A stretch of DNA of 47,468 nucleotides. Origin: Clostridiales bacterium UBA1248. GTDB taxonomy: Bacteria > Bacillota > Clostridia > Oscillospirales > CAG-272. The DNA is taken from positions 1 through 47,468 of the forward strand of contig DBWC01000047.1 of assembly GCA_002308615.1 (NCBI GenBank). Reading direction: 5' to 3'. The position numbers were made by a program, and so were the translations under genes. The notes beneath the pieces were generated by a model, which did no database searches, had not been told where the DNA came from, and worked only from the letters and a program-made list of their open reading frames with translations. Below, in pieces: positions 1-12,260 of this stretch; positions within the stretch are counted from its first letter, which is position 1; each line of letters starts with the position of its first letter.

Positions 1-1049
1 GGCTTTTTGCCGTAGTAATATACGAAAGTGTCGAGATAGCTTACGGTATAGAACGCCGGAAGCTCCTGCAGAAGATACGGATGCTCAAAACCCGAGAAAT
101 CCACGAATCTGTTGTCCACGCGGATGATGCTTCCGTCAAGCGTATACGTGTTCTCCATATACGACGGCGTAAGAGAGCCGTTCAGCGCCCAGTCCTTCGC
201 CTGAGTTTTTACACAGACCGAATCCGCGTCTATCTCAAGATCAATAAGACGCGACGGAGTCCCCGCGACGTCGCCGCCCTGTACCGGGTTGTAGTTCCAT
301 TTTGCGCCGTTGAACACGCCGGGATCGTATACGCCTTCGATTTCCGGCGTGCCGTAGTACGACTGCTGTACGAGTCTGCCGGTGTCGTGCTGGTTTATCA
401 GGTTCTCAAGCCCTTCGACCTTGCAGCGCTTGTCCGATATATACGATATTCCGCCGCCCCACGCAAGCCTGATGCCGAGGCGCAGATCGCCGTTTTCGAT
501 ATAGAAGTTGCCGTCCGCGTCGGTCGCGGGGAGCTGCACGCTTTCGGTCGTTATTTTTCCGAGCCCGAAACCGTACGTCCCGGGCAAAAGCGGAGAGACC
601 TCCGCGTAAGCTATCCCGTCAGCAGATCCGCCGGACAAAAAGCCGCTGATCAGACCGCGGAAATCCCCGTTTCCGGAAGCTTCGAGAAAGAACCGCTCGA
701 CTGACGTTTCATCGCCTTTTTTCAGCGCGACGTCTATCACGCACGGCGCAGTGCAGCTGTATCCGATCCGGATGCGGTTGAAAGGAGCGCCGGCTTTCAC
801 GTCTGTCAACGTGAACTTTACGGTTCCGTCCGAATAATACATACCGTCCCTTTCTTCATATTTACCCGATACCTCGTATATTTTCCCCTCCGCGGTCACG
901 GCGTCCGTATCCGTAACGGGCACGCTTTCCGTATCCGTAACGGGCGCGGTTTCGGTTCCGCCCCCGCATGACGGCAGTGTTATGAGCGCTGCCGCGGCGA
1001 GCGCCGGCGCGAGAAACTTTTTTATTGTTTTTGAAACGTTCGTTTTCAT
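1..1049 (-). CDS. Secreted lipoprotein of unknown function (3' end runs off the window start)
   Basis: Absent from the ORF track because it is cut by the window edge. Minus-strand ATG at 1047-1049 with GGAGG 6 nt upstream (1056-1060). N-terminus MKTNVSKTIKKFLAPALAAAALITLPSCGGG is a signal peptide plus lipobox Cys, followed by a Thr/Glu/Asp-rich linker. The frame stays open to nt 1 (~349 codons). Family not recognised. Confidence 0.8.
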   Translation of the reverse strand, partial: MKTNVSKTIKKFLAPALAAAALITLPSCGGGTETAPVTDTESVPVTDTDAVTAEGKIYEVSGKYEERDGMYYSDGTVKFTLTDVKAGAPFNRIRIGYSCTAPCVIDVALKKGDETSVERFFLEASGNGDFRGLISGFLSGGSADGIAYAEVSPLLPGTYGFGLGKITTESVQLPATDADGNFYIENGDLRLGIRLAWGGGISYISDKRCKVEGLENLINQHDTGRLVQQSYYGTPEIEGVYDPGVFNGAKWNYNPVQGGDVAGTPSRLIDLEIDADSVCVKTQAKDWALNGSLTPSYMENTYTLDGSIIRVDNRFVDFSGFEHPYLLQELPAFYTVSYLDTFVYYYGKK

Positions 1050-1084
1050 ACGTCGCCTCCCGGTCAACCTGTTCTCCATTATGT

Positions 1085-1113
1085 ATTCTACCATATATTT
1101 CCGGTATCGTCAA
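1085..1113 (-). promoter_or_regulatory. sigma70-type promoter of the lipoprotein gene
   Basis: Minus strand TTGACG (1108-1113), 17-nt spacer, TAGAAT (1085-1090) with TG just upstream of the -10. It lies ~35 nt upstream of the ATG. Confidence 0.5.
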
Positions 1114-1153
1114 GAGCGTATCCGTTACGAGCGGTTAATTTTATGATAACGAA

Positions 1154-1177
1154 AACGGCGCCGCGCGCGGTGCCGTT
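1154..1177 (-). terminator. Intrinsic terminator at the islet/core boundary
   Basis: Minus strand AACGGCACCGC..GCGGCGCCGTT hairpin (about 11 bp including one G.U) followed by TTTTCGTT. Confidence 0.55.
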
Positions 1178-1260
1178 GCATATCGCGTTTTATTCGGTCT
1201 TCATCGGGAAAAGCCTGCAATATAGCTTTTTTCGTAGTTTGCAAAAATAGCTTCTATTGT

Positions 1261-1440
1261 TCACTCTCTTTTATCCTGTTTCGATTCAAACATTTTTATC
1301 CTCCGGGGTCTCTCTATCGAGTTCTATTTCGACTCAAACCAGAGGCTTTTTTCTGATTCGATTCGGAATCAAATTAGAATCTTCCATCTTCTTCTGATTC
1401 AGAACTCTATCTCCTAATTCGGAGTTAAAACAGATAAATA
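1261..1440 (+). repeat. Diverged inverted copy (foldback arm) of the ~165-nt module
   Basis: The outer end ACTCTCTTTTATCCTGTTTCGATT (1263-1286) mirrors the outer end of the core copy (revcomp of 1604-1631). It shares ordered words with 11861-12050: GATTCAAAC, GACTCAAAC/GACTCGAAAC, TTAGAATCTTCC/TTAGAGTCTTCC. Confidence 0.45.
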
Positions 1441-1479
1441 CGGAATATCTTCGTCGTTTTCTCTTCAAATTCTGATTTT

Positions 1480-1636
1480 ATCGGATCTTTTTCGGATAAG
1501 AAAAAGACCCTGTTTTCACAAGGTCTTTATTGGATTTATTTGGATTTTTCTCTTTAATTCTTTCTCGATTCAGATTCGGAACAGGATAAAATGGAGTGAA
1601 CCAAATCGGGGGGAAAGAGGATAAAGAGAGTTGGAC
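1480..1636 (-). ncRNA. Candidate small RNA / conserved repeat module, copy 1 (family not recognised)
   Basis: Aligns by eye over ~155 nt with 11682-11850 and 12099-12260. It ends in the hairpin AAAGACCTTG-TGAAAA-CAGGGTCTTT (1503-1528) plus a T-run on the minus strand. Its 5' part is CU-rich (CTCTCTTTATCCTCTTTCCCCCC). A promoter lies upstream (next feature). The track ORF 1478..1678 is not conserved as an ORF in the other copies. Confidence 0.4.
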
Positions 1637-1666
1637 GGAGACATAGTATATAGACCTTGTACGGTC

Positions 1667-1695
1667 AGTATAACTCATTAAACCGGATTTTTCAA
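1667..1695 (-). promoter_or_regulatory. sigma70-type promoter upstream of module copy 1
   Basis: Minus strand TTGAAA (1690-1695), 17-nt spacer, TATACT (1667-1672). It lies ~30 nt upstream of the conserved core. Confidence 0.45.
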
Positions 1696-1833
1696 GCGGT
1701 TTTGACCGAAATATACGAATTGTTTACAAACAGATATATCGACCGGTAAAAGGGCATGGCAATTATCCACATCTTTAATAGGGCCGTTTCCTGATTCATT
1801 TATGCTATTATTCACTGTTCCTTATCATTTAAT

Positions 1834-2175
1834 TTAGCTTTCTTTATTCTTATTTTCATCGCTGTATTTATATATTCCCCGATGCACATAATAGTCTTTT
1901 AGCTCTTGGCACTGATCGTCCGACAGAATTCTCTCTCGTATACAGAATCTGATCTCACAATCGATCTCCGTACGGTAGCAGTCCTCACAATCGCCGTCTC
2001 TTTCGTTGATGCAGATCATGAAATCGTCGATCGCTTTTTCCAACTCTTCCGGAATCGGATAAGAAATATTCAGTTTTTTATACGGGACGTTATGCGGATT
2101 AAAATAGCCTTTTTTATTCGCTGTGTAAACCGTTGTTGTTTTTTCCTTGTTAATCTCCGGCAAATTGCTGTTCAT
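1834..2175 (-). CDS. Hypothetical small Cys-rich protein (113 aa)
   Basis: Complete ORF with GGAGAAAC RBS 8 nt upstream of the ATG. It has six Cys residues in a DGDCEDCYRTEIDCEIRFC...C region. It is AT-rich relative to the flanks. No family recognised. Confidence 0.65.
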   Translation of the reverse strand: MNSNLPEINKEKTTTVYTANKKGYFNPHNVPYKKLNISYPIPEELEKAIDDFMICINERDGDCEDCYRTEIDCEIRFCIRERILSDDQCQELKDYYVHRGIYKYSDENKNKES

Positions 2176-2258
2176 TTTTTTTGTTTCTCCTTCAATCTTC
2201 TACTTACAGAATTTTATATTGGCAAATACTGTTCCCGCTTACCTAAAATAGCATACTG

Positions 2259-3005
2259 TCATATCGTATTACCGCCTAAAACCCAGCCGTTGTCACCGTG
2301 ATATATCATCAGTTTCGTCATACCGCCGTCGATACAGAGATTTTCACCTGTTATAAATCCGGCTTTATCGGAGCAGAGGAAAAGCACGGCGGAAGCTATG
2401 TCAAGCGGATTTCCGACTCTGCCGACGGGTTGCTGATACGCGTCGGGACCTTCATATACGCGGTACGCGGTATCTATCCAACCCGGGGATATGGAATTTA
2501 CTCTGATCTTTCCGGCAAAGCTGACGGCGAGCGCGTGCGTCAGAGCCGAAATACCGCCCTTTGCCGCCGTGTAGCTTTCCGTCTGCGGCTGGCTCATTCT
2601 GTCGCGTGAAGATGATATATTGATTATCGAACCGCCGTCGGTAAAATACGGCGCAAACAGTTTTGACAGATAAAACGGAGCCGTAACCCCGACAGAGAGC
2701 GCATATGAAAATTCTTCGTAGGAACACGAATCTATACCTTTCATAAGCGGCGGCGCGTTGTTGATCAGATAATCTATTTGACCGAACTTTGCGATAACGC
2801 TTTCGGCAAAGGCTTCAATCACGGTTTTATCGCCTATATCGCCGATAAAGTGATCTCCGGGCATAGTGTCGATAACAGCAACGGAAGCTCCGTTTTTCTC
2901 AAACTCATCTGCGATACACTTCCCTATACCGCACGCGCCGCCCGTTATTACAGCGACTTTATTTTTAAATTCAATATTCATACGATTTTCCGCTTTCTGC
3001 ATCAC
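2259..3005 (-). CDS. SDR family oxidoreductase
   Basis: TGGACGIG dinucleotide-binding motif, NNA motif, catalytic S...YTAAK, and a PG-W-DT C-terminal pattern. The start may instead be the internal ATG at 2981 (MNIEFKNKVAVITGG). Confidence 0.9.
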   Translation of the reverse strand: MMQKAENRMNIEFKNKVAVITGGACGIGKCIADEFEKNGASVAVIDTMPGDHFIGDIGDKTVIEAFAESVIAKFGQIDYLINNAPPLMKGIDSCSYEEFSYALSVGVTAPFYLSKLFAPYFTDGGSIINISSSRDRMSQPQTESYTAAKGGISALTHALAVSFAGKIRVNSISPGWIDTAYRVYEGPDAYQQPVGRVGNPLDIASAVLFLCSDKAGFITGENLCIDGGMTKLMIYHGDNGWVLGGNTI

Positions 3006-3006
3006 T

Positions 3007-3612
3007 TTATTGTTCGTTTGCTATTCTTATGTATTTGTAAACCGTCCCGCGGGAGCATTCAAGGATCCTTGACATTTCGGTTACGGTCAGTTGATTGTTC
3101 TTATATCTGTTATATGCTTTCCAAAAGTTAGCAGGAATGTCGTCGGCGGTTGTTTGAGGTCTTCCGATCTTTTTTCCTTTAGCGACAGCATTCTTCATAC
3201 CGGATCGTACACGTTCGCTGATGATATCACGTTCCATTTCGGCAAAGACCGCCCACATCATAAGCATACCTTTAGTCATAGCGTCGATATCGTCGGCGCG
3301 GCAATCGACGCAAAAAGTTCCTATTATTAACCGGAGTTTTTTATTTTGGATCAAAGAAAGAATTTCGCAAAGATGCTGCGTTGAACGGGACAGTCGAGAC
3401 ACCTCGGTAGATATGATCGTATCACCCGGCTGAACAATATTAAGGAGCTTTGTAAGCTCAGGCCGATTCGTTTTTGCTCCGGACTCATACTCCCAATATA
3501 TATGAGCGTCATCTTCAACACCGAGTTTTAAAAGATCTCTTTTTTGTCTGTCTATATCCTGTCTCAATTCCGACGTGCTGCACCGTGCGTAACCGTAAAT
3601 AACTCCCACCAA
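3007..3612 (-). CDS. Small serine recombinase (resolvase/invertase family) with C-terminal HTH
   Basis: N-terminal YARCSTSELRQDIDRQ contains the catalytic-Ser motif, followed by STEVSRLSRS, E-helix region FAEMERDIISERVRSG and GRP. The C-terminal HTH is LTVTEMSRILECSRGTVYKYI. AAGGAGG lies upstream, and the GTG at 3607-3609 may be the true start. Confidence 0.9.
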   Translation of the reverse strand: MVGVIYGYARCSTSELRQDIDRQKRDLLKLGVEDDAHIYWEYESGAKTNRPELTKLLNIVQPGDTIISTEVSRLSRSTQHLCEILSLIQNKKLRLIIGTFCVDCRADDIDAMTKGMLMMWAVFAEMERDIISERVRSGMKNAVAKGKKIGRPQTTADDIPANFWKAYNRYKNNQLTVTEMSRILECSRGTVYKYIRIANEQ

Positions 3613-3623
3613 AGCCTCCTTGA

Positions 3624-3685
3624 TGTTTACAAAACGGTATATTTTGTTTTGTGAACATTATACCCCGCTTTTTCGGGTTTTTCAA
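3624..3685 (-). promoter_or_regulatory. Recombinase promoter overlapped by a 12-10-12 inverted repeat (candidate operator / res-like site)
   Basis: Minus strand TTGAAA (3680-3685), 17 nt, TATAAT (3657-3662). The inverted repeat is TGTTTACAAAAC (3624-3635), 10 nt, GTTTTGTGAACA (3646-3657), matching 11/12, and spans the -10 box and 5'UTR. Confidence 0.5.
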
Positions 3686-3984
3686 GGTGTGTATTGTAAA
3701 TAAAAAAGTGTCTTCAAAAAGATTTGTTTTTGTGACGCTTTATTGATTTGATAACATAATAGATAAAACAAGCCGGATTCACTATGACCCGGCTTTTTAT
3801 GTTCGTTTTTTTCTTTGAAATGTCATTAATCAGATTATCATAAGGAGAATTTTTCAAATTGTTTTGAGATATTATAGGATATATACTTGAAAAAAATATT
3901 ATTTGTGATATAATATTAAATGGGTTATAATATAGTTTTGTCTTCAAGCAAAGTGTAGGTATAAATGGTTGGTAGGTATATATT

Positions 3985-4158
3985 GTGGAGTTAATTGATA
4001 ACACTTCCAAAACGCTGAGGGATGATTTGGCAGATGAAATTAAAGAAGGCAGCAAGCTATCGGTTGCAGCTGCGTGCTTTTCTATTTACGCTTTTCAGGA
4101 ACTAAAAAGTGAGTTTATGATTATGATAGAAAATAAAAGTAGAGAAGGAGAACCATAA
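3985..4158 (+). pseudogene. 5' stub resembling the N-terminus of PLD-domain/SF2-helicase (restriction/defence type) proteins
   Basis: A GTG-initiated 57-codon ORF encodes VELIDNTSKTLRDDLADEIKEGSKLSVAAACFSIYAFQELKSE. From memory this matches the conserved N-terminal PLD-like segment of large helicase/nuclease proteins. It then diverges and stops at 4156-4158, overlapping the ATG of the next gene. TATAAT-like boxes lie upstream (3900-3945). Confidence 0.45.
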
Positions 4159-5201
4159 TGAATGTAAGTAAACCGACGCCCGGAAAAGACGGCAACAAGT
4201 ACGTACCTTTTGAAAAGCGTACGGGAGAAAGCTCAACAGTTTTCTTTACGCGCGATCTGTCCGAGAACGGGCTGAAAAAAGTATTTGACAAAGTAAGCTC
4301 GGTGCTGTGCGGAAAAATTGCGGTAAAACTGCATACAGGCGAAGCGCAGGGACCGAACATAATTCCGCGTCCATGGGTAAAGGAGTTGTTCGCCTCACGT
4401 CTGCAGAACGCGTCGATCATTGAGACAAACACGTATTACGAAGGCAGCCGCTACACTACCGAGGCTCATCGTAAGACGCTTGAGATCAACGGCTGGACTT
4501 TTTGCCCGGTAGATATAACCGACAGCGACGGCGTCGCCGTGCTTCCCGTCAAAGGCGGCAAATGGTTTTCCGAGATGCACGTCGGCAAAAGTATGCTTGA
4601 TTACGACTCTCTTCTTGTCCTGACGCATTTCAAGGGGCATATGATGGGCGGCTTCGGGGGAAGCAACAAAAACATCGGTATCGGATGCGCGGACGGACGG
4701 ATCGGCAAGGCGGAGATACATACCGCTGTCGGCTCGGATAATATGTGGAGCATTGCCGAAGAGGAGTTGATGGAGCGTATAAGCGAAAGCACAAAGGCGA
4801 CGATAGATTATTTTGCGCCGCACGTCTGCTATATAAACGTTATGCGCAATATGTCCGTTTCCTGTGACTGCGAAGGTCCGGAGGCGGAGCCTGTCGTCAC
4901 GCCGGACGTGGGAATCCTTGCGTCGCTTGATATTCTGTCCGTTGACAACGCGTGTATGGATCTGATATATAATCTTCCGGACGGCGGCGGAAAAGCTCTT
5001 GTCGAAAGGGTCGAATCCCGTCACGGACTGCGTCAGCTCAGCTATATGAAAGAGCTCGGCATGGGCAACGACCGTTATACGCTGATAGACGTTGACAACG
5101 GCGACGCAGTCGTCACAGCCGCCGAAGCGGTAAAAGACGTAAAACCGGGATGGAGACCGGATCGCTATAACACTTTCTTAGGACGCAACAGGCGCGGATA
5201 G
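4158..5201 (+). CDS. DUF362 domain-containing protein
   Basis: AAGGAG RBS. Motifs typical of DUF362: KIAVKLHTGE, ETNTYYEGSRYTTEAH, THFKGHMMGGFGGSNKNIGIGC. Confidence 0.85.
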   Translation: MNVSKPTPGKDGNKYVPFEKRTGESSTVFFTRDLSENGLKKVFDKVSSVLCGKIAVKLHTGEAQGPNIIPRPWVKELFASRLQNASIIETNTYYEGSRYTTEAHRKTLEINGWTFCPVDITDSDGVAVLPVKGGKWFSEMHVGKSMLDYDSLLVLTHFKGHMMGGFGGSNKNIGIGCADGRIGKAEIHTAVGSDNMWSIAEEELMERISESTKATIDYFAPHVCYINVMRNMSVSCDCEGPEAEPVVTPDVGILASLDILSVDNACMDLIYNLPDGGGKALVERVESRHGLRQLSYMKELGMGNDRYTLIDVDNGDAVVTAAEAVKDVKPGWRPDRYNTFLGRNRRG

Positions 5202-5221
5202 GAAACGGAAGGAAAAGTATA

Positions 5222-6103
5222 ATGAGCCGGTGCGAAATTGTGAAGAAGATTATAATTTTGCTGCTTTTGCTCCCTGCTGTAATAAGTATCAGCGCATGCG
5301 GCGGCGGAAACGGAGGCATAACCGAAATGAATACTGATACAACCGGCGACGTGCTTTTGCCAACGACCAGCCAACTTGACGATGAAACAACAGCAAAGCC
5401 GGGATCATATACTCAGATATCTCAGGAAGAAGCCAAAGAGATGATGAAAAAGAACAACGGGCACGTTATCGTTGACGTGCGCCGTCAGGACGAGTATGAT
5501 GAAGGACATATCCCCGGAGCGATACTCATACCAAACGAAAGCATCGGAACGGAAAAGCCGGAAGAACTGCCGGATCTTGATCAGATAATTCTCGTTTACT
5601 GCAGAAGCGGCAGAAGAAGCAAGGAGGCGGCGCAGAAGCTGTTCGATATGGGATATACGCATATTTATGAATTTGGCGGAATAATAGACTGGACGGGAGA
5701 CATTGTGAAAGACGAAATAACTGAACCTGTAGCGCCAACGTGCGTGCTTGTTATAAAAGTCGGAGAAAAGCTGTTTTACGCAAACCTTGAGGACAATTCG
5801 TCTGCAAAGGCGCTTGTTGAAAAACTGAATTCCGGACCGATCACCGTGGATATGCATGACTACGGTAGCTTTGAAAAGGTGGGCGAGCTCCCGTGGGAAC
5901 TGCCGCGAAACGATGAGAATATAACGACAGTGCCCGGAGATATTATCCTCTATCTCGGAAAGCGTATTGTCATTTACTACGACGAGAACACATGGGATTT
6001 CACGCGGATTGCAAAGATTGAAAACACAAGCAAGGATGAACTACTCGCCGCGCTCGGCGACGGAAACGTATCGGTATCGTTTTATCTGGAGTGGAGTGAA
6101 TGA
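5222..6103 (+). CDS. Lipoprotein with rhodanese domain fused to a cyclophilin-like domain
   Basis: Signal peptide plus lipobox (ISISACGGG). The rhodanese core is VIVDVRRQDEYDEGHIPGAILIP...VYCRSGRRS with an active-site Cys loop. The C-terminal half (KVGEKLFYANLEDNSSAKALVEKL...GDIILYLGKRIVIYY) resembles the cyclophilin-like fold family. Confidence 0.85.
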   Translation: MSRCEIVKKIIILLLLLPAVISISACGGGNGGITEMNTDTTGDVLLPTTSQLDDETTAKPGSYTQISQEEAKEMMKKNNGHVIVDVRRQDEYDEGHIPGAILIPNESIGTEKPEELPDLDQIILVYCRSGRRSKEAAQKLFDMGYTHIYEFGGIIDWTGDIVKDEITEPVAPTCVLVIKVGEKLFYANLEDNSSAKALVEKLNSGPITVDMHDYGSFEKVGELPWELPRNDENITTVPGDIILYLGKRIVIYYDENTWDFTRIAKIENTSKDELLAALGDGNVSVSFYLEWSE

Positions 6104-6136
6104 GCCGATGAAAAAACAGATCAAAACAACGATATT

Positions 6137-6760
6137 ATGAAACTATATGAATTCGGCGACGCAGGCGCCGATACCGTTCTTATTCAGCCGGTGGACGATC
6201 ACGACCTTTCGGGCATCGAAAACGAGGTCGCGCTCATCGCCGCGAACTGCGGTAAAAGCTTTCGCCTGATCGCGGTCAAAATCGACAACTGGAATACCGA
6301 TCTTTCGCCGTGGAAAGCGCCCGCCGTGTTTGGAAAAGATGATTTCGGCGGCGGCGCGGAAGAAACGCTCGCGGGAATACTGAAGCTCTGTTCGGACGTG
6401 AGCAAAACGTATTATATCGGCGGCTATTCGCTCGCGGGACTTTTCGCGCTTTGGGCGGCGTACCGGACGGACGTTTTCAAAGGCGTCGCGGCAGCGTCCC
6501 CGTCGATGTGGTTCCCGGGCTTTGCGGATTATATGAATGAGAATGAGATCAAAACCGGCGCTGTCTATCTCAGTCTCGGCGACAAGGAAGAAAAAGCGCG
6601 CAATCCCGTTATGGCGACGGTCGGCGACAGGATCCGCGAGGCGCACGCCATGCTCTCCGGACACGGCGTAAAATGTACGCTTGAATGGAACGAAGGCAAT
6701 CACTTCAAGGACACCGATATCCGCACGGCAAAGGCGTTTTCGTGGTTGATAAAGAATTGA
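6137..6760 (+). CDS. Alpha/beta hydrolase (putative esterase)
   Basis: Nucleophile elbow GYSLAG, with length and pattern typical of small esterases. Confidence 0.8.
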   Translation: MKLYEFGDAGADTVLIQPVDDHDLSGIENEVALIAANCGKSFRLIAVKIDNWNTDLSPWKAPAVFGKDDFGGGAEETLAGILKLCSDVSKTYYIGGYSLAGLFALWAAYRTDVFKGVAAASPSMWFPGFADYMNENEIKTGAVYLSLGDKEEKARNPVMATVGDRIREAHAMLSGHGVKCTLEWNEGNHFKDTDIRTAKAFSWLIKN

Positions 6761-6796
6761 GAGCTCCCGACAAATCGGGATTTGCGGAGGTAATAC

Positions 6797-7426
6797 ATGG
6801 AACTGTACGAAACAATCAATCAAAGAAGAACCGTTAGAGAGTTTCTCGATAAAGAAGTCGATTTTGAAGCAATCAAACGTATTTTAGAGGCGGGCAATAA
6901 AGCACCGACCTGGAACCATAACCGTAACTGGAGCTATATCGTTCTGCGAACCGATGAAGAAAAAGAATACGCTTTCGATTACGCGAAAAAGATGGCGGAG
7001 AAATTCGACGCGGACAGATACCTGAATATGCCGAGACCGTACCCGGTAACGCTCGCGCAGAAAATGTACGGATACGCTGTCCCGAGACAGTTTACGATGC
7101 TGAAAAACGCGCCGTATGTTATCATCCCCGTTTTCAAATGCAAGGAACTGAACGGCGAATACGTTTCCAAACTGAATCCGTTCTCGACGATCTGGTGCGT
7201 GATCGAAAACATATTTCTCGCGGCGACAGCCGAAGGGCTTGGATGCTCCATGAGGATACCGCTGAACGAGGAACACGACATCGTAAAAGCGAAACTGAAA
7301 GTCCCGCCGACGTATATGATCCCCGTTTTTATCGGGATCGGATATACTGACCCGAACGAAACGGTACTTGAACAGAGTTATCCCGATTTGGAGAAACAAC
7401 TGCATTTCGGTAAATGGAAAAAATGA
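6797..7426 (+). CDS. Nitroreductase family protein
   Basis: GGAGG RBS. N-terminal INQRRTVREF, then KAPTWNHNRNW and a C-terminal IGIGY pattern. Confidence 0.9.
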   Translation: MELYETINQRRTVREFLDKEVDFEAIKRILEAGNKAPTWNHNRNWSYIVLRTDEEKEYAFDYAKKMAEKFDADRYLNMPRPYPVTLAQKMYGYAVPRQFTMLKNAPYVIIPVFKCKELNGEYVSKLNPFSTIWCVIENIFLAATAEGLGCSMRIPLNEEHDIVKAKLKVPPTYMIPVFIGIGYTDPNETVLEQSYPDLEKQLHFGKWKK

Positions 7427-7747
7427 AGACTATTAGGCGATTTCGATATCCGATCGGAATTCTTTTTCATCGGAAAAACCGACGAAGAAATATCGCTGGT
7501 TTGCAGGACCGAAGATACTCCGTCAAAAACGGCAGAACGCGACGACGGATGGCGAGGATTTCGCATTCAGGGAACGCTCGATTTCTCACTGATCGGTATT
7601 CTTTCAAAAATATCCGGCATCCTCACGGAACATAAAATCGGGATCTTTGCGGTATCAACGTACAATACGGATTATATCCTTGTTAAAGAAAATAACTTTG
7701 AAAAGGCTTTAACGGTATTGGCTTCCGAAGGATATACAATAATATAG
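7423..7747 (+). pseudogene. ACT domain (ACT_7-like) gene with a frame break just after its ATGA-coupled start
   Basis: Frame 7427..7747 encodes ...LLGDFDIRSEFFFIGKTDEEISLVCRTEDTP...DDGWRGFRIQGTLDFSLIGILSKISGILTEHKIGIFAVSTYNTDYILVKE but contains no ATG/GTG/TTG. The only coupled ATG (7423-7425, overlapping the nitroreductase TGA) is in a different frame. Confidence 0.55.
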
Positions 7748-7772
7748 ATTAGGATTTGCAAAGGCAAACAGA

Positions 7773-8342
7773 ATGATAATTGAAACCGAAAGACTGATAC
7801 TCCGCCCGTTTCTTGAAACAGATGCGGCGGACGTTTTCGAATACTTACATAAACCGGCGGTCAACTGCTTTGCGTCGATGAAACTGGATACGCTTGAAGA
7901 CGCAAAAAAAAAAATGAAAAAACGCGTCAGCGAGACTGAATACTACTTTGCTATTACACTGAAAGACGGCGGCAAGGTGATCGGCGAGATCGACGCTTAT
8001 CCCGAAGCCGGAGAGCCGCACGAGGATGAAACCTCGCCGAAGGACACGTTCAGCCCGTGCTGGATGCTGAATCTGAATTATACCGGAAAAGGCTACGCCT
8101 ATGAAGCGGCGCACGCTTTCTTCGATTACCTGTTCAATGAAAAAGGCGCAAGGCGGATATACGCTTATACCGAGGATACTAACCTTCCGAGTCAGCACCT
8201 TTGTGAAAAACTCGGAATGCGCCGCGAAGGATTGTTCCTTGAGTTTATCTCGTTCGTAAACAACCCGGACGGCACGCCTCGTTATGAGAATACATATCAG
8301 TACGCGATTCTGAAAAAGGAGTGGGATAAAAGAAAAGCATGA
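7773..8342 (+). CDS. GNAT family N-acetyltransferase (RimJ/RimL-like)
   Basis: N-terminal IETERLILRPF, YTGKGYAYEA acetyl-CoA loop, and SQHLCEKLGMRREG. Confidence 0.9.
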   Translation: MIIETERLILRPFLETDAADVFEYLHKPAVNCFASMKLDTLEDAKKKMKKRVSETEYYFAITLKDGGKVIGEIDAYPEAGEPHEDETSPKDTFSPCWMLNLNYTGKGYAYEAAHAFFDYLFNEKGARRIYAYTEDTNLPSQHLCEKLGMRREGLFLEFISFVNNPDGTPRYENTYQYAILKKEWDKRKA

Positions 8343-8953
8343 CGCAATACGAAAGAATGGTAAAAGGTCTGATCTACGACCCCGCTGACCCGGAAATCAT
8401 GGCGGAGCAGGTCCCGTTTCAGGATAAACTGTGGGAATTCAATCAGTTGAAACCCTCTGACTATGAGAAAAAACAGCGATATATGAAAGAGGTCTTCGCC
8501 GAATGCGGCGAAAACTGCTATATCGAACTGCCGCTCCGAGCCAACTGGGGCGGTCATCACCTGCATTTCGGCTCAAATATCTACGCGAATTCCAACCTTA
8601 CGCTTGTGGACGACGGGCATATCTACGTCGGCGACAAGGTGATGTTCGGACCGAACGTGACGATCGCGACGGCGAATCATCCGATCGATCCCGAACTGCG
8701 CACCCGCGCTCTGCAGTATAACAAGGACGTGTATATCGGCGAGAACGTATGGATCGGCGCGGGAGTAATCATCGTGCCCGGAGTTCGTATAGGCAAGAAC
8801 AGCGTTATCGGCGCGGGGAGCGTCGTGACGAAGGACATCCCCGAAAACGTCGTTGCAGTCGGTAATCCCTGCCGCGTATTACGGGAAATATCCGAACGCG
8901 ATAAGGAATTCTTTTACAAAAACGAACGGATAGACTGGGAAGAGTTGGATTGA
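8339..8953 (+). CDS. maa: Sugar (maltose/galactoside) O-acetyltransferase, hexapeptide-repeat family
   Basis: Mac-type N-terminal region (GLIYDPADPEI...), then left-handed beta-helix hexapeptide repeats (IGENVWIGAGVIIVPGVRIGKNSVIGAGSVV). It overlaps the GNAT gene by ATGA. Confidence 0.9.
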   Translation: MTQYERMVKGLIYDPADPEIMAEQVPFQDKLWEFNQLKPSDYEKKQRYMKEVFAECGENCYIELPLRANWGGHHLHFGSNIYANSNLTLVDDGHIYVGDKVMFGPNVTIATANHPIDPELRTRALQYNKDVYIGENVWIGAGVIIVPGVRIGKNSVIGAGSVVTKDIPENVVAVGNPCRVLREISERDKEFFYKNERIDWEELD

Positions 8954-8955
8954 CC

Positions 8956-9354
8956 ATGAAGTTTAAACACACAAGCCGTCCGGGCTTCCTTCTCGGATTT
9001 ATAGATTTTTTCACAGCCGGATTATTCTTCCTGCTGTATATGCCTCTCGGCGGACTGCAGAAGGAACTGGAAGATATCCTCGGCCACAAGGTTCGGCCGT
9101 ACTGGCAGGCGTATCTGCTCGGTATTCCGACGCTGTTCATTTATACGCTTGTATGGATGGCGAACATATCTGAAGAACTAAAAGCGAAAGCGACCGAGCT
9201 GGGTATTGAAGGTCCGCATACGTCATGGAAGCACATGTTCTGGTGGAACATGCTCGGCTGTCTCTGCTTCGGACCGATGATCGCGACGCACAGATTCTTC
9301 AGAACGCTGAATAAGGTTGAATCAGAACTGAACAAATGTGGATCAAAAAACTGA
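8956..9354 (+). CDS. Small membrane protein (DUF4234-like)
   Basis: Hydrophobic helices are present. The ATG at 8956 is preferred over the track's TTG at 8950. The family assignment is from memory only. Confidence 0.7.
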   Translation: MKFKHTSRPGFLLGFIDFFTAGLFFLLYMPLGGLQKELEDILGHKVRPYWQAYLLGIPTLFIYTLVWMANISEELKAKATELGIEGPHTSWKHMFWWNMLGCLCFGPMIATHRFFRTLNKVESELNKCGSKN

Positions 9355-9414
9355 AAGGAACCAGGATAGATTTTTTATCCGGACTGATGAATCCGGTTTT
9401 TGAGGTATGATGAA

Positions 9415-10623
9415 ATGACGATAAGATCTGCAAAAACAAGCGCGATACTCATTATTTCGGCGGTATTTCTGTATATTTTGTGTTCATGCAAAGCGAACGC
9501 GCCGGACACGATGTCTGACGCAATTACAACAGAAACGTCAACGGAAACTGAAGCTTTCACAACGGAGAAAGAAACGGAAGAGGCAGAGATGAAGCTGAAA
9601 GACAATATTACGTTTGAACAAAGCGAAGAGATCATAATTCGTCCGTTTTCCTGGGCGCCGCGCGTTTATTATTCAAACGGCGGTGAGATTATCGCAGGTT
9701 ACGAGACACCGGAGGGGATAAAGACCGCTAAAAGCAAGGACGGCGGCAAAACGTGGTACGGCGAAGCGGATGCCTCGTTTTTTAAAGATCTCAACTGTGC
9801 AAACGTAAATTTCTTTTTTGATGGAGAACGTATTTATCTCGCGTACCGCGCCGTAGGGAATACCGATAAAGGACTTTACACCTCGCTTCAGGTAAGCGTA
9901 TCCGAAGACAACGGCAAAAGCTGGTCGTATCATTCGACCGTCGCCGAATACACGGACAACAAAGGCGGCTGCGGTGTATGGGAGCCTTATCTCGGACTGC
10001 TTAACGGCAGACTTATCTGTATGTATGCAAACGATCATCCGTCTGTGACGAAATATCAGAATATAGAATATCTTGTGTGGAACGGAACTGAATGGACGGA
10101 ACGCACCGTAATAAGCGACGGCAACGCTCATAAATCGCGTGACGGAATGCCCGTCTGGTGCGAGTCACCCGACGGCGGTTATCTATGCATTATCGAGAGC
10201 ACGACGGAGCGTAATAAAGGCTATCCTTTCGTGCTTAAGCTGTTTTATTCGGAGGACGGCGTGAACTGGTCCGAGCCGAAGATAATATATAAGCCGTCGT
10301 CAAAGAATTCAAAAACCGCCGCGCCGGGCGTTGCCGTTTTGCCTGACGGACGTCTGGCCGTCAGCTTTCAGACGGACGAGGACGCGACCGTAAAGGGCGA
10401 CTCTCAAAGTGTTATGAAGATAATGATCTCTGACGGCACGTCTGTAAAAGAGCTTGATAAAACACATTTCTCAACACCCGAAAACATTTTCGGCACGCCG
10501 GACGGAGAATCGTCTGTATGGAGCGGTATTTTTTACCGTGACGGTGTGATATATGCATCCGCAGGAACGAAAAACGGCTCGTCGCTCAAAACCGCCGTGG
10601 TGTATAATAAAACAAAATCGTAA
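9415..10623 (+). CDS. BNR/Asp-box repeat sialidase-like lipoprotein
   Basis: Signal peptide with a Cys (YILCSC) and a Thr/Glu linker. Three Asp-box motifs: SKDGGKTW, SEDNGKSW, SEDGVNWS. The ATG at 9415 with GAGG 9 nt upstream is preferred to the TTG at 9400. Confidence 0.85.
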   Translation: MTIRSAKTSAILIISAVFLYILCSCKANAPDTMSDAITTETSTETEAFTTEKETEEAEMKLKDNITFEQSEEIIIRPFSWAPRVYYSNGGEIIAGYETPEGIKTAKSKDGGKTWYGEADASFFKDLNCANVNFFFDGERIYLAYRAVGNTDKGLYTSLQVSVSEDNGKSWSYHSTVAEYTDNKGGCGVWEPYLGLLNGRLICMYANDHPSVTKYQNIEYLVWNGTEWTERTVISDGNAHKSRDGMPVWCESPDGGYLCIIESTTERNKGYPFVLKLFYSEDGVNWSEPKIIYKPSSKNSKTAAPGVAVLPDGRLAVSFQTDEDATVKGDSQSVMKIMISDGTSVKELDKTHFSTPENIFGTPDGESSVWSGIFYRDGVIYASAGTKNGSSLKTAVVYNKTKS

Positions 10624-10627
10624 AACA

Positions 10628-11464
10628 ATGAAAAAACTGAACAAAAAAAGGCTTTGTCTTTATACGCCGCCTTTACCTGACAACACGTCTATGCTTGATA
10701 CGATAGAACTTGCGGAAACGCTCGGACTCGGCGGCATCGAGCTTATGAATTTTTGCCGTGAGCTGAAAACTCCCGATATTGACGGTGCCGCGCGTTTATT
10801 CAACGCCGCAAAGGAAAAGGATCTGTACGTACCTTGCCTTACCGTCAACTCGGATATCCCGACTTCCCCCGATGAAGCCGTGGAGACGCTGAAAAAATAC
10901 GCCGATATATGCGCAGCGTTCGGCATAAAATATCTGCATCATACGATAGCTAAGGACTTTCATTGTTATGATATATCCGATATTGAGATAAACAGAAGAT
11001 TTGAGGTATGTATTCCCGCGGTAAAGCAGGTGTGCGAATACGCAAACTCGATAAATGTCAGTATCTTAACGGAAAATCAGGGTTTTGTCTTTAACGGCGT
11101 ATCGAATATGCGGCGGCTGTATGAAAGAACCGGAGGGAAAATCGGTTTTATCGCCGACACGGGAAATACGCTGTTTTTAGATGAAAAACCTGAGAAATTC
11201 ATAAAGGAATTTAAAGACAAAGTTTATCACGTACATATTAAAGATTATAAGATTGCAGACGGTGATGATCCGGATGAGCCTATATATATTTCACGCGGCG
11301 GGATGCGCTTTACAGACGCCGAAATAGGCACGGGGATCATCCCGCTTGACCGTGTGATAAATACGTTGAATGATATAAACTACCGCGGTATGTTCTCTCT
11401 TGAATTCAACGGCGTTAAGGACTGTGAAGAAATAAAACGAGTGCTGAAAAGAATTACCGAATGA
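10628..11464 (+). CDS. Sugar phosphate isomerase/epimerase (xylose isomerase-like TIM barrel)
   Basis: MKKLNKKRLCLYT start. The track start at 10553 overlaps the previous gene. Typical features are the ...GIELMNF..., ENQG, and HVHIKD patterns. Confidence 0.85.
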   Translation: MKKLNKKRLCLYTPPLPDNTSMLDTIELAETLGLGGIELMNFCRELKTPDIDGAARLFNAAKEKDLYVPCLTVNSDIPTSPDEAVETLKKYADICAAFGIKYLHHTIAKDFHCYDISDIEINRRFEVCIPAVKQVCEYANSINVSILTENQGFVFNGVSNMRRLYERTGGKIGFIADTGNTLFLDEKPEKFIKEFKDKVYHVHIKDYKIADGDDPDEPIYISRGGMRFTDAEIGTGIIPLDRVINTLNDINYRGMFSLEFNGVKDCEEIKRVLKRITE

Positions 11465-11536
11465 TGACCTGACCGATTATCTTGATATGCGGGCATAAAT
11501 CCGACGAATGATCCCGACAATAATACAACAAAAAAA

Positions 11537-11590
11537 AGCAACGAATTAAGTAACCGATTATGTTAATTGATTGTTCGCTGCTTTTTTATG
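11537..11590 (+). terminator. Possible intrinsic terminator
   Basis: AGCAACGAA...TTCGCTGCT stem (one mismatch, extended by AATTAA/TTAATT) followed by TTTTTT. The A-run upstream means it could work in both directions. Confidence 0.4.
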
Positions 11591-11681
11591 TTATTTTATT
11601 AAACACCCAAATATATAGCGCTCAATAATATATAGAAATCTTATTCCTCATCATCAAACGAATAATCATTCAACTCTTTGT

Positions 11682-11850
11682 ATCGGATCTTTTTCGGATA
11701 AGAAAAAGACCCTGTTTTCACAAGGTCTTTGATGGATTTTGATGGAGTTTTTCTCTTTAATTCTTTCTCGATTCAGATTCAAGAGAGGATAAAATGGAGT
11801 GAACCAAATCGGGGGGAAAGAGGATAAAGAGAGGTGGAAAGGATCAACGG
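11682..11850 (-). ncRNA. Candidate small RNA / conserved repeat module, copy 2
   Basis: Differs from copy 3 at only 3 positions over ~146 nt. It has the same terminator hairpin (11705-11730) plus a T-run on the minus strand. The conserved frame has no start codon. Confidence 0.4.
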
Positions 11851-11860
11851 CTGTCCATTT

Positions 11861-12050
11861 CCATTCTTCTTTTTTCTATTTTGATTCAAACAAGTTTTTT
11901 CTGTCATATTGAATCAATCGGACTCGAAACGGAGGCTCACTCCATCTCATTCCATCTCGAATTCCGACTCGAAACAGAGTCTTTTTAGAGTCTTCCGTCT
12001 TGCTCTAATTCTCCTCTAAATCTCTGAAAAGAGAGAGAAAAGATGGATTT
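11861..12050 (+). repeat. Diverged inverted copy (foldback arm) of the module
   Basis: The plus strand GGCTCACTCCATCTCATTCCATCTCGAATTCCGACTCGAAA parallels the minus-strand core GGTTCACTCCATTTTATCCTCTCTTGAATCTGAATCGAGAAA. Its word order is shared with 1261-1440. Confidence 0.4.
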
Positions 12051-12098
12051 TCTATAGAAATTCTGCATTTTTCTTTCGATTTTGGAGTTGGACAGAGT

Positions 12099-12260
12099 CT
12101 TTCGGAAATAGAAAAAAGACCCTGTTTTCACAAGGTCTTTGATGGATCTTGATGGAGTTTTTCTCTTTAATTCTTTCTCGATTCAGATTCAAGAGAGGAT
12201 AAAATGGAGTGAACCAAATCGGGGGGAAAGAGGATAAAGAGAGGTGGACAGGATCAATGG
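12099..12260 (-). ncRNA. Candidate small RNA / 3'UTR element, copy 3 (starts 3 nt after the guaA stop)
   Basis: Same module with a terminator hairpin at 12115-12140 followed by TTTTTTCTATTT on the minus strand. It serves as the guaA operon terminator. Confidence 0.45.

Follow-up and report, generated by a model that had tools for sequence, protein, structure and literature searches.

The DNA at positions 1259-1731 of the window appears to be one copy of a two-armed, genus-restricted, non-coding cassette. It would serve as a portable terminator within a hotspot of integration and accretion that lies behind guaA, at the gene's 3' end, and it would spread by recombination and not by transposition; we put the probability of this reading at about one half. 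The window is the whole stretch of DNA that was analysed, the 47,468-nt contig DBWC01000047.1, which belongs to an assembly of 142 contigs (2.19 Mb, 79% estimated completeness). The cassette is non-coding and restricted to one genus of uncultured rumen Clostridia, and the comparison of its homologs gave its anatomy, the island bracketed by its copies, the hotspot itself, the mosaicism of its arms and its narrow distribution.

Layout and distribution of the cassette

The region 1255-1735 was read directly and then scanned for promoter and terminator signals. The unit at 1259-1645 (387 nt) consists of a B arm (1259-1475) and an A arm (1476-1645). BLAST of 1201-1760 against the window returned A copies at 1476-1636, 11678-11838 (92.5%) and 12100-12249 (90%), all in the same orientation and with identities of 90-93% within the window. 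The copies are arranged as B1-A1 at 1259-1645 and as A2-B2-A3 at 11678-12255, among these features:

1154-1177, minus strand: GC-rich terminator, located upstream of the promoter of the lipoprotein gene; the first one to follow guaA in G003
1259-1475, minus strand: copy 1 B arm, of type B1, which follows the terminator on this strand and has no conserved ORF
1259-1287, no strand: left repeat arm, GTTCACTCTCTTTTATCCTGTTTCGATTC, the outer end of the unit
1476-1645, minus strand: copy 1 A arm, made up of structured, CU-rich sequence and, behind it, an intrinsic terminator
1503-1528, minus strand: Rho-independent terminator hairpin, followed by UUUUUCUU
1573-1601, no strand: right repeat arm, within the A arm and 44 nt from the unit end
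1646-1731, minus strand: putative promoter module fused to the A arm, with hexamers at 1695-1667 and the palindrome TTGTTTACAAAC at 1720-1731
1646-11677, no strand: accessory DNA of ~10 kb, bracketed by cassette copies
11678-11849, minus strand: A arm of copy 2, truncated just past its own terminator, with no B arm after it
11839-12099, minus strand: second-locus B arm, of type B2, which shares 59% identity with B1 and carries guaA-end look-alikes
11850-11867, minus strand: decayed guaA 3' end, GAATGGAAATGGACAGCC, directly upstream of A2
11932-11948, minus strand: second pseudo-guaA end, GAGATGGAGTGAGCCTC, inside B2, with 3 mismatches to the G008-type guaA end
12100-12255, minus strand: A arm of copy 3, beginning 9 nt past the guaA stop codon
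12264-13790, minus strand: guaA (GMP synthase) with GATase and GMP_synt_C domains; its 3' end is the hotspot boundary

The accessory DNA encodes a resolvase (3007-3612), an SDR, a DUF362 protein, a rhodanese-cyclophilin protein, a nitroreductase, a GNAT, a GH32/BNR-like protein and a xylose-isomerase-like protein.

The ~387-nt unit is kept in six other sequences of the same genus, among them G007, G002, G001, L018 and L022, and across the homologs the B-A unit (385-400 nt) is preserved as one block with sharp ends. The A arms are better conserved (74-96% identity) than the B arms (57-99%). The B arm measures ~220 nt. B1 is 96-99% identical in G007, G002 and L018; its identity to the remaining B types, those of G001, L022 and B2 of the window, amounts to 59-72%, and the arms of the four B types are 57-73% identical to each other. 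Across these very different B types the A arm holds its 74-96% identity and contains long invariant blocks.

A genome-wide census does not agree with the mobile, MITE-like element proposed in an earlier, sequence-only reading of this DNA. The 79%-complete assembly holds three A copies, all of them in the window and within one 11-kb interval, and no further copy of A, of B (1240-1480) or of the B-like segment 11839-12099 was found in the whole assembly. BLAST against 40 related genomes detected the module in 3 of 11 congeners, at one copy each, and in no other genus; the family is present in 4 of the 12 genomes of one genus. Using a pattern scan, we recovered from the GTDB species representatives only the same three rumen MAGs, which are labelled "uncultured Ruminococcus sp." or "Clostridiales bacterium". 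The corresponding scan of metagenomes gave five true hits and five chance hits, the latter in coding DNA, and added two distinct versions (L018 and L022) plus copies of the G007 locus. A covariance model of the A arm (R1) returned generic terminators only over 200 genomes of the family, and viral contigs (pattern scan), plasmids and phages contained no match to the unit. The resulting homolog set comprises ~8 sequences, all from metagenome assemblies.

No reading frame of the unit is conserved among the homologs. A protein-coding interpretation was rejected, as frames are not conserved, a common start codon or ribosome-binding site is missing and indels break every ORF between homologs; a 10-codon mini-ORF behind GGAGGAUAAAAAUG is missing in G001. 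Rfam gave no match in the window at the gathering threshold, and the segment 1100-1800 produced only sub-threshold, terminator-driven hits. DnaA boxes of a replication origin were also considered and dismissed: TTATCCTC shows two differences to TTATCCACA, and the presence of three copies speaks against an origin. As a separate observation, GANTC words are about 10-fold enriched at 1259-1645 and 11678-12255 (9 per 387 nt vs 2.0 per kb genome-wide), which makes the two loci the densest GANTC clusters in the assembly. The enrichment is retained in G001 and B2; L022 has only 3 such words.

Inverted similarity between the two arms

According to the sequence-only reading, the segment 1261-1440 is a diverged copy of the module in opposite orientation. 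Local alignment of B1 (plus) with A1 (minus) gave a score that 0/1000 dinucleotide shuffles reached, and the repeat search placed the best inverted register at 1259-1287 and 1573-1601 (25/29 matches, 86% complementary). Without the first 29 nt, however, 167/1000 shuffles scored as high as the alignment of B (plus) with A (minus). The remainder of B1 is at shuffle level, and hence the B arm is not a diverged inverted copy of the module but shares one terminal motif with it. Of the imperfect terminal inverted repeats described for the unit, a 29-nt repeat is present, with its right arm 44 nt inside the unit. The register given earlier, 1263-1286 against the reverse complement of 1604-1631, does align, but two gaps are needed, and it aligns because the A arm has two direct TTTATCCT motifs. 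The outer end of the B arm repeats, in inverted form, a 20-29-nt motif of the A arm. This inverted AGGATAAA/TTTATCCT motif is retained in all four B types, facing the A arm, and its retention hints at a constraint outside the best explanation, either RNA pairing or a protein-binding site.

The 29-nt repeat at or near the ends, the inverted AGGATAAA in all B types and the presence of the unit in several contexts (guaA, the desulfoferrodoxin gene dfx, the promoter of a ROK gene) would fit a foldback or MITE-type non-autonomous transposon that has imperfect terminal inverted repeats and is moved in trans by a transposase. This interpretation has to account for a family with no copy outside the hotspot and 0-1 copies per congener. 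Moreover, a comparison of the junctions across 7 contexts revealed no consistent direct repeat of the flanks and thus no consistent target-site duplication. For any pair of loci the flank is common to one side only, and such one-sided sharing points to recombination joints and not to cut-and-paste insertion. Elsewhere in the genome the terminal motifs are absent, so that no autonomous parent element with matching ends is visible, and the plasmid, phage and viral collections contain nothing that matches the unit. Together with the internal position of the right arm, these findings make a mobile foldback element very improbable.

The two repeats, 285 nt apart, could also delimit an invertible switch, in which flipping of the 285-bp segment between them by the serine recombinase encoded at 3007-3612 would switch the site between termination and read-through towards the lipoprotein gene. 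This 201-aa, resolvase-type enzyme with a helix-turn-helix domain lies 1.4 kb away and is the only recombinase near the window copies; no integrase gene adjoins them. Against such a switch, 8/8 homologs show one orientation, the units of G007 and G001 have no recombinase of this type beside them and G002 has only a truncated resolvase fragment several kb off. By eye, the repeat arms also lack the internal dyad symmetry of hix-type sites. A switch of this kind is hardly to be expected.

Terminator, predicted RNA and promoter module

Each of the three window copies (3/3) carries a terminator on the minus strand, which bears out the statement that the module copies share the one at 1503-1528. In copy 1 it reads AAAGACCTTGTGAAAACAGGGTCTTT followed by TTCTTATCC (1528-1503, minus strand). 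The terminator stem contains a U.G pair on the minus strand in 7/8 copies, where the plus strand would have a C.A mismatch, and the minus strand is thus likely the RNA strand. We infer that the A arm ends whatever transcription enters it. This would be the transcription of guaA at copy 3 and in G002 and that of dfx in G007, and at copy 1 that of the resolvase-SDR operon or of the captured promoter described below. A3 provides the first terminator after guaA.

Predicted RNA folds differ between the strands. A1 folds with z = -5.0 on the minus strand vs -0.75 on the plus strand, and in three of four variants the minus-strand A arm reaches z-scores of -4.4 to -5.7, compared with about -0.8 to -1.5 for the plus strand. 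The exception is G001, whose minus-strand A arm folds no better than shuffles (z = -1.1). The whole unit can form a long foldback on either strand (z = -3.9 minus, -2.3 plus). In its consensus fold the covariation term is positive, i.e. penalising, with few compensatory pairs. The basal helices CUCUCUUU/AAAGAGA and UCUUUC/GAAAGA are invariant and therefore uninformative on covariation. The apical helix lacks conservation, and covariation as a whole does not exceed that of shuffles. A stem of GAUUUGG with CCGAAUC, preserved by C-to-U changes to G.U pairs, had been suggested from the window copies. These changes are indeed present in copies 2 and 3, but the stem is lost in 3/8 homologs (G007, G002 and G001), where a non-pairing GUCAA-AAAG replaces it; the helix pairs in 77% of cells, with covariation not above shuffles. 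The sequence of the right repeat arm, GUUCACUCCAUUUUAUCCUG on the minus strand, is located in the predicted apical loop and is nearly invariant in the 8 homologs.

Upstream of the A arm of copy 1, the promoter TTGAAA-17 nt-TATACT named in the sequence-only reading is present at 1695-1667 on the minus strand and matches the consensus at 10/12 positions, with a predicted transcription start at ~1655-1660 (minus). These hexamers recur with the 17-nt spacing in G001, L018, L022 and at G007:C167, the last of these without an A arm. Two spacer variants exist outside the window, one common to G001, L018 and G007:C167 and the other found in L022; counted by eye, the spacers differ at 12/34 positions and the hexamers at 1/24. 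With nearly constant hexamers and 17-nt spacers that are about one third different, this looks like a working promoter that was captured by copy 1. The module is joined to A at the same junction in G001 and L018, both with a ROK kinase gene upstream, and in L022 in a different context, while at G007:C167 it stands behind a ROK kinase gene and ahead of two small protein genes. The segment 1646-1731 is a separate module, with a putative promoter of the sigma-70 type.

Among the window copies, copy 1 alone combines its own promoter with an intrinsic terminator. No such promoter accompanies copies 2 and 3 or those of G002 and G007; what precedes the A arm there is guaA, a B arm or dfx. On the plus strand, no -35/-10 pair for the B arm is conserved across the contexts. 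Copy 1 probably yields an RNA of ~165 nt from the captured promoter. As a prediction, the independent transcription unit claimed for it is reasonable, given a promoter conserved across four contexts and a good terminator. A type I toxin-antitoxin system of the par/Fst kind, with convergent RNAs over a bidirectional terminator, was rejected: there is no conserved small hydrophobic ORF, and since the repeats are inverted in the DNA, convergent transcripts would be identical and not complementary.

These properties raise the question of whether the A arm is itself a regulatory small RNA, or one derived from a 3'UTR, with sibling copies and with the genomic shuffling being incidental. Its invariant CU-rich motifs UUUAUCCUC and CACUCCAUUUUAUCCU would then pair with the Shine-Dalgarno regions of targets. 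The conserved promoter and the terminator of copy 1, the strand bias of the fold, an invariant 19-nt motif in the predicted apical loop and the conservation of A over B are all consistent with such an RNA. Set against them are a family confined to 4/12 genomes of one genus, the lack of covariation, the poor minus-strand fold of G001, the promoterless copies (2, 3, G002 and G007) and the missing Rfam match, and on balance we consider this possible but unlikely. A regulatory role of the copy 1 RNA would mean that hotspot DNA carries a small RNA.

The promoter module has a palindrome at its outer boundary, TGTTTACAAA(C) at 1720-1739. It recurs at 3624-3642, on the upstream side of the resolvase gene (3007-3612), and the two form a direct repeat of 19 nt (84%). 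In G001, L018 and L022 the homology to the promoter module stops inside this palindrome, and in G002 an inverted resolvase fragment adjoins the lipoprotein flank. The two palindromes are possible recombinase sites.

The guaA hotspot and related systems

Mobilizable elements with tyrosine integrases, among them ATE-1, GIsul2 and the Brucella IncP island, are documented to target the guaA 3' end, and decayed elements (CIMEs) accrete at such integrase target sites (PMC5704250). G003 lacks both the cassette and the island; there, 21 nt separate the guaA stop from the lipoprotein flank (94% identity to window 1-1218). Elsewhere the interval between guaA and the lipoprotein gene is filled with different DNA and spans ~11 kb (window), ~7 kb (G002) or ~15 kb (G007). 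The insert of G007 starts directly behind guaA with an integrative mobilizable element that has a tyrosine integrase with an arm-binding domain (L049:3171-4238), AAA_25 and Mob_Pre. Between species, guaA itself is 79-89% identical, and past its stop codon identity rises abruptly to 94-97.5%. For the island segment 9451-11651, which holds the GH32/BNR-like and xylose-isomerase-like pair, identity to G002 is 97.5% compared with 82% for guaA, which argues for a recent transfer of island DNA between species.

The islands of the congeners carry further genes. In G002 these include a gene for a ParE-type toxin (PF05016) with a small upstream gene (L047 3580-4162), followed by genes for a metallo-beta-lactamase-fold, a tocopherol-cyclase-like and a SIMPL protein. 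A protein of 407 aa that is encoded in the G007 island (L049 12797-14020) carries an LHH nuclease domain of the polymorphic-toxin type at its C-terminus; two large ORFs without a Pfam match precede its gene. A second repeat family, REP-like, consists of short GC hairpins in arrays, with AATTATGA/CATAATT words between them (downstream of guaA in L033, L036, L035, L032 and L030; also L004 1100-1270 and L002 960-1080). It fills the region downstream of guaA in at least five congeners and flanks the B arm in G001.

Copies of the guaA terminus recur within the hotspot. The A arm is preceded by the true terminus and TCGCCAT in copy 3 and G002 and by a decayed terminus at A2 (11850-11867) and in G007 (L049:15270). 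The sequence at 11850-11867 agrees with the real end, GAGTGGGAATGA-TCGCC, at 14/18 positions, and the linker and A start that come next are the same as behind the real guaA end (GTTGATCC vs ATTGATCC). For the second pseudo-end at 11932-11948, ~0.06 matches of this quality are expected in 14 kb. In G007 the pseudo-termini at L049:14759 and L049:15270 bracket the lone dfx gene, and in G006 303-nt tandem units with pseudo-termini lie behind guaA (L036 1783, 2086 and 2389). Other guaA-end copies of ~17 nt are located at 2026 and 2335 of L033 (G008), 1261 and 1496 of L035 (G009) and 970 of L049 (G007). The recurring ends look as if small cassettes had accreted one after another at a single target site of an integrase.

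Direct repeats of the att-core type are clear for A3-B2 (guaA end; 11932; 11850-11867) and for G007 (L049:15270) and weak at B1. Here the reverse complement of the left arm ends in GAGAGTGAAC, which resembles the guaA terminus at 7-8/10 positions only and is missing in L022, so the copies are not all cleanly bounded by att-like repeats. Both this outer end of B1 and the inverted A motif ATGGAGTGAACC show a weak resemblance to the guaA terminus.

The pseudo-guaA ends in B2 and beside the A arms, the rapid divergence of the B arms and the narrow, patchy distribution could be taken as signs of neutral debris, i.e. att scars left by serial integrations behind guaA, with a terminator present by chance only. 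Such debris would not readily explain an A arm that keeps its identity and its long invariant blocks across four B types, its uniform orientation to upstream transcription in every context and the preservation of the inverted motif in all variants, and we regard this reading as quite unlikely.

The joints and the mosaic structure of the arms can be compared directly. In the window the order is guaA / A3-B2-A2 / 10 kb / P-A1-B1 / lipoprotein gene, P being the promoter module. The congeners show guaA / A-B / other DNA (G002) and dfx / A-B / lipoprotein gene (G007), while G001 and L018 have ROK gene-P / A-B / other DNA. The cassette copies that bracket the island are in direct orientation. Within the A arms, variable blocks are inherited independently of each other: for alignment columns 5-10 and 36-44, each of the four possible combinations is represented in the seven sequences. 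The B arm of copy 1 is 98% identical to that of G007, and its A arm is closer to L022 (95%) than to G007 (91%).

The portable terminator cassette would have two likely routes of movement: site-specific recombination that acts on the guaA-end core, and homologous exchange from one cassette copy to another. In the window, incoming P-A DNA may have recombined through the cassette with a resident guaA-A-B-lipoprotein arrangement, which would leave copy 1 and copies 2/3 as direct repeats around the ~10 kb inserted between guaA and the lipoprotein gene; this is the simplest account. A more specific version takes the unit as a gene-free, cis-mobilizable cassette of ~400 bp that guaA-specific integrases would capture and shuffle. 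It would be kept for restoring termination to the gene in front of it and for a CU-rich, anti-Shine-Dalgarno-like regulatory RNA, with the complement of the conserved loop motif at the far end of the B arm acting on read-through as a sponge or processing site; we hold this to be decidedly improbable.

Read as a cassette, the unit locates an island hotspot at the guaA 3' end in an uncultured rumen genus and reveals a recent exchange of island DNA between species. It also calls for caution, since repeats that bear a terminator should not be annotated as a MITE or a small RNA from sequence alone.

Several known systems share features with the cassette. Correia/NEMIS elements of Neisseria and the RUP and BOX elements of Streptococcus pneumoniae are likewise short non-coding repeats with inverted terminal similarity. 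As with Correia, RUP and BOX elements, the cassette brings a terminator, has one copy behind a promoter and could form a long hairpin if read through. In contrast to those elements, which have tens to hundreds of dispersed copies, the cassette has three in one hotspot, and the TA target duplications of Correia elements have no counterpart in it.

Firmicutes possess CU-rich small RNAs with sibling copies, namely LhrC1-5 in Listeria, the csRNAs in Streptococcus and RoxS/RsaE. The predicted RNA of the A arm resembles them in its length of ~160 nt, its pyrimidine-rich, anti-Shine-Dalgarno-like motifs, its intrinsic terminator and its multiple copies, two of them in tandem. It differs from them in that it matches no sequence or model and most copies lack a promoter of their own.

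A further close system is provided by CIMEs and the tandem accretion at integrase targets, e.g. the ICESt1-related islands at fda in Streptococcus thermophilus. While described CIMEs are decayed islands that still carry genes, the unit analysed here is non-coding and measures ~400 bp, and its core repeats, clear for A3-B2 and G007, are weak or absent at the ends of B1 and L022. As in CIMEs and the guaA elements, the cassette lies directly behind the guaA 3' end and decayed gene termini separate the units. Also like CIMEs, it has no recombinase or transfer genes of its own, and in G007 an integrase-bearing element occupies the same site.
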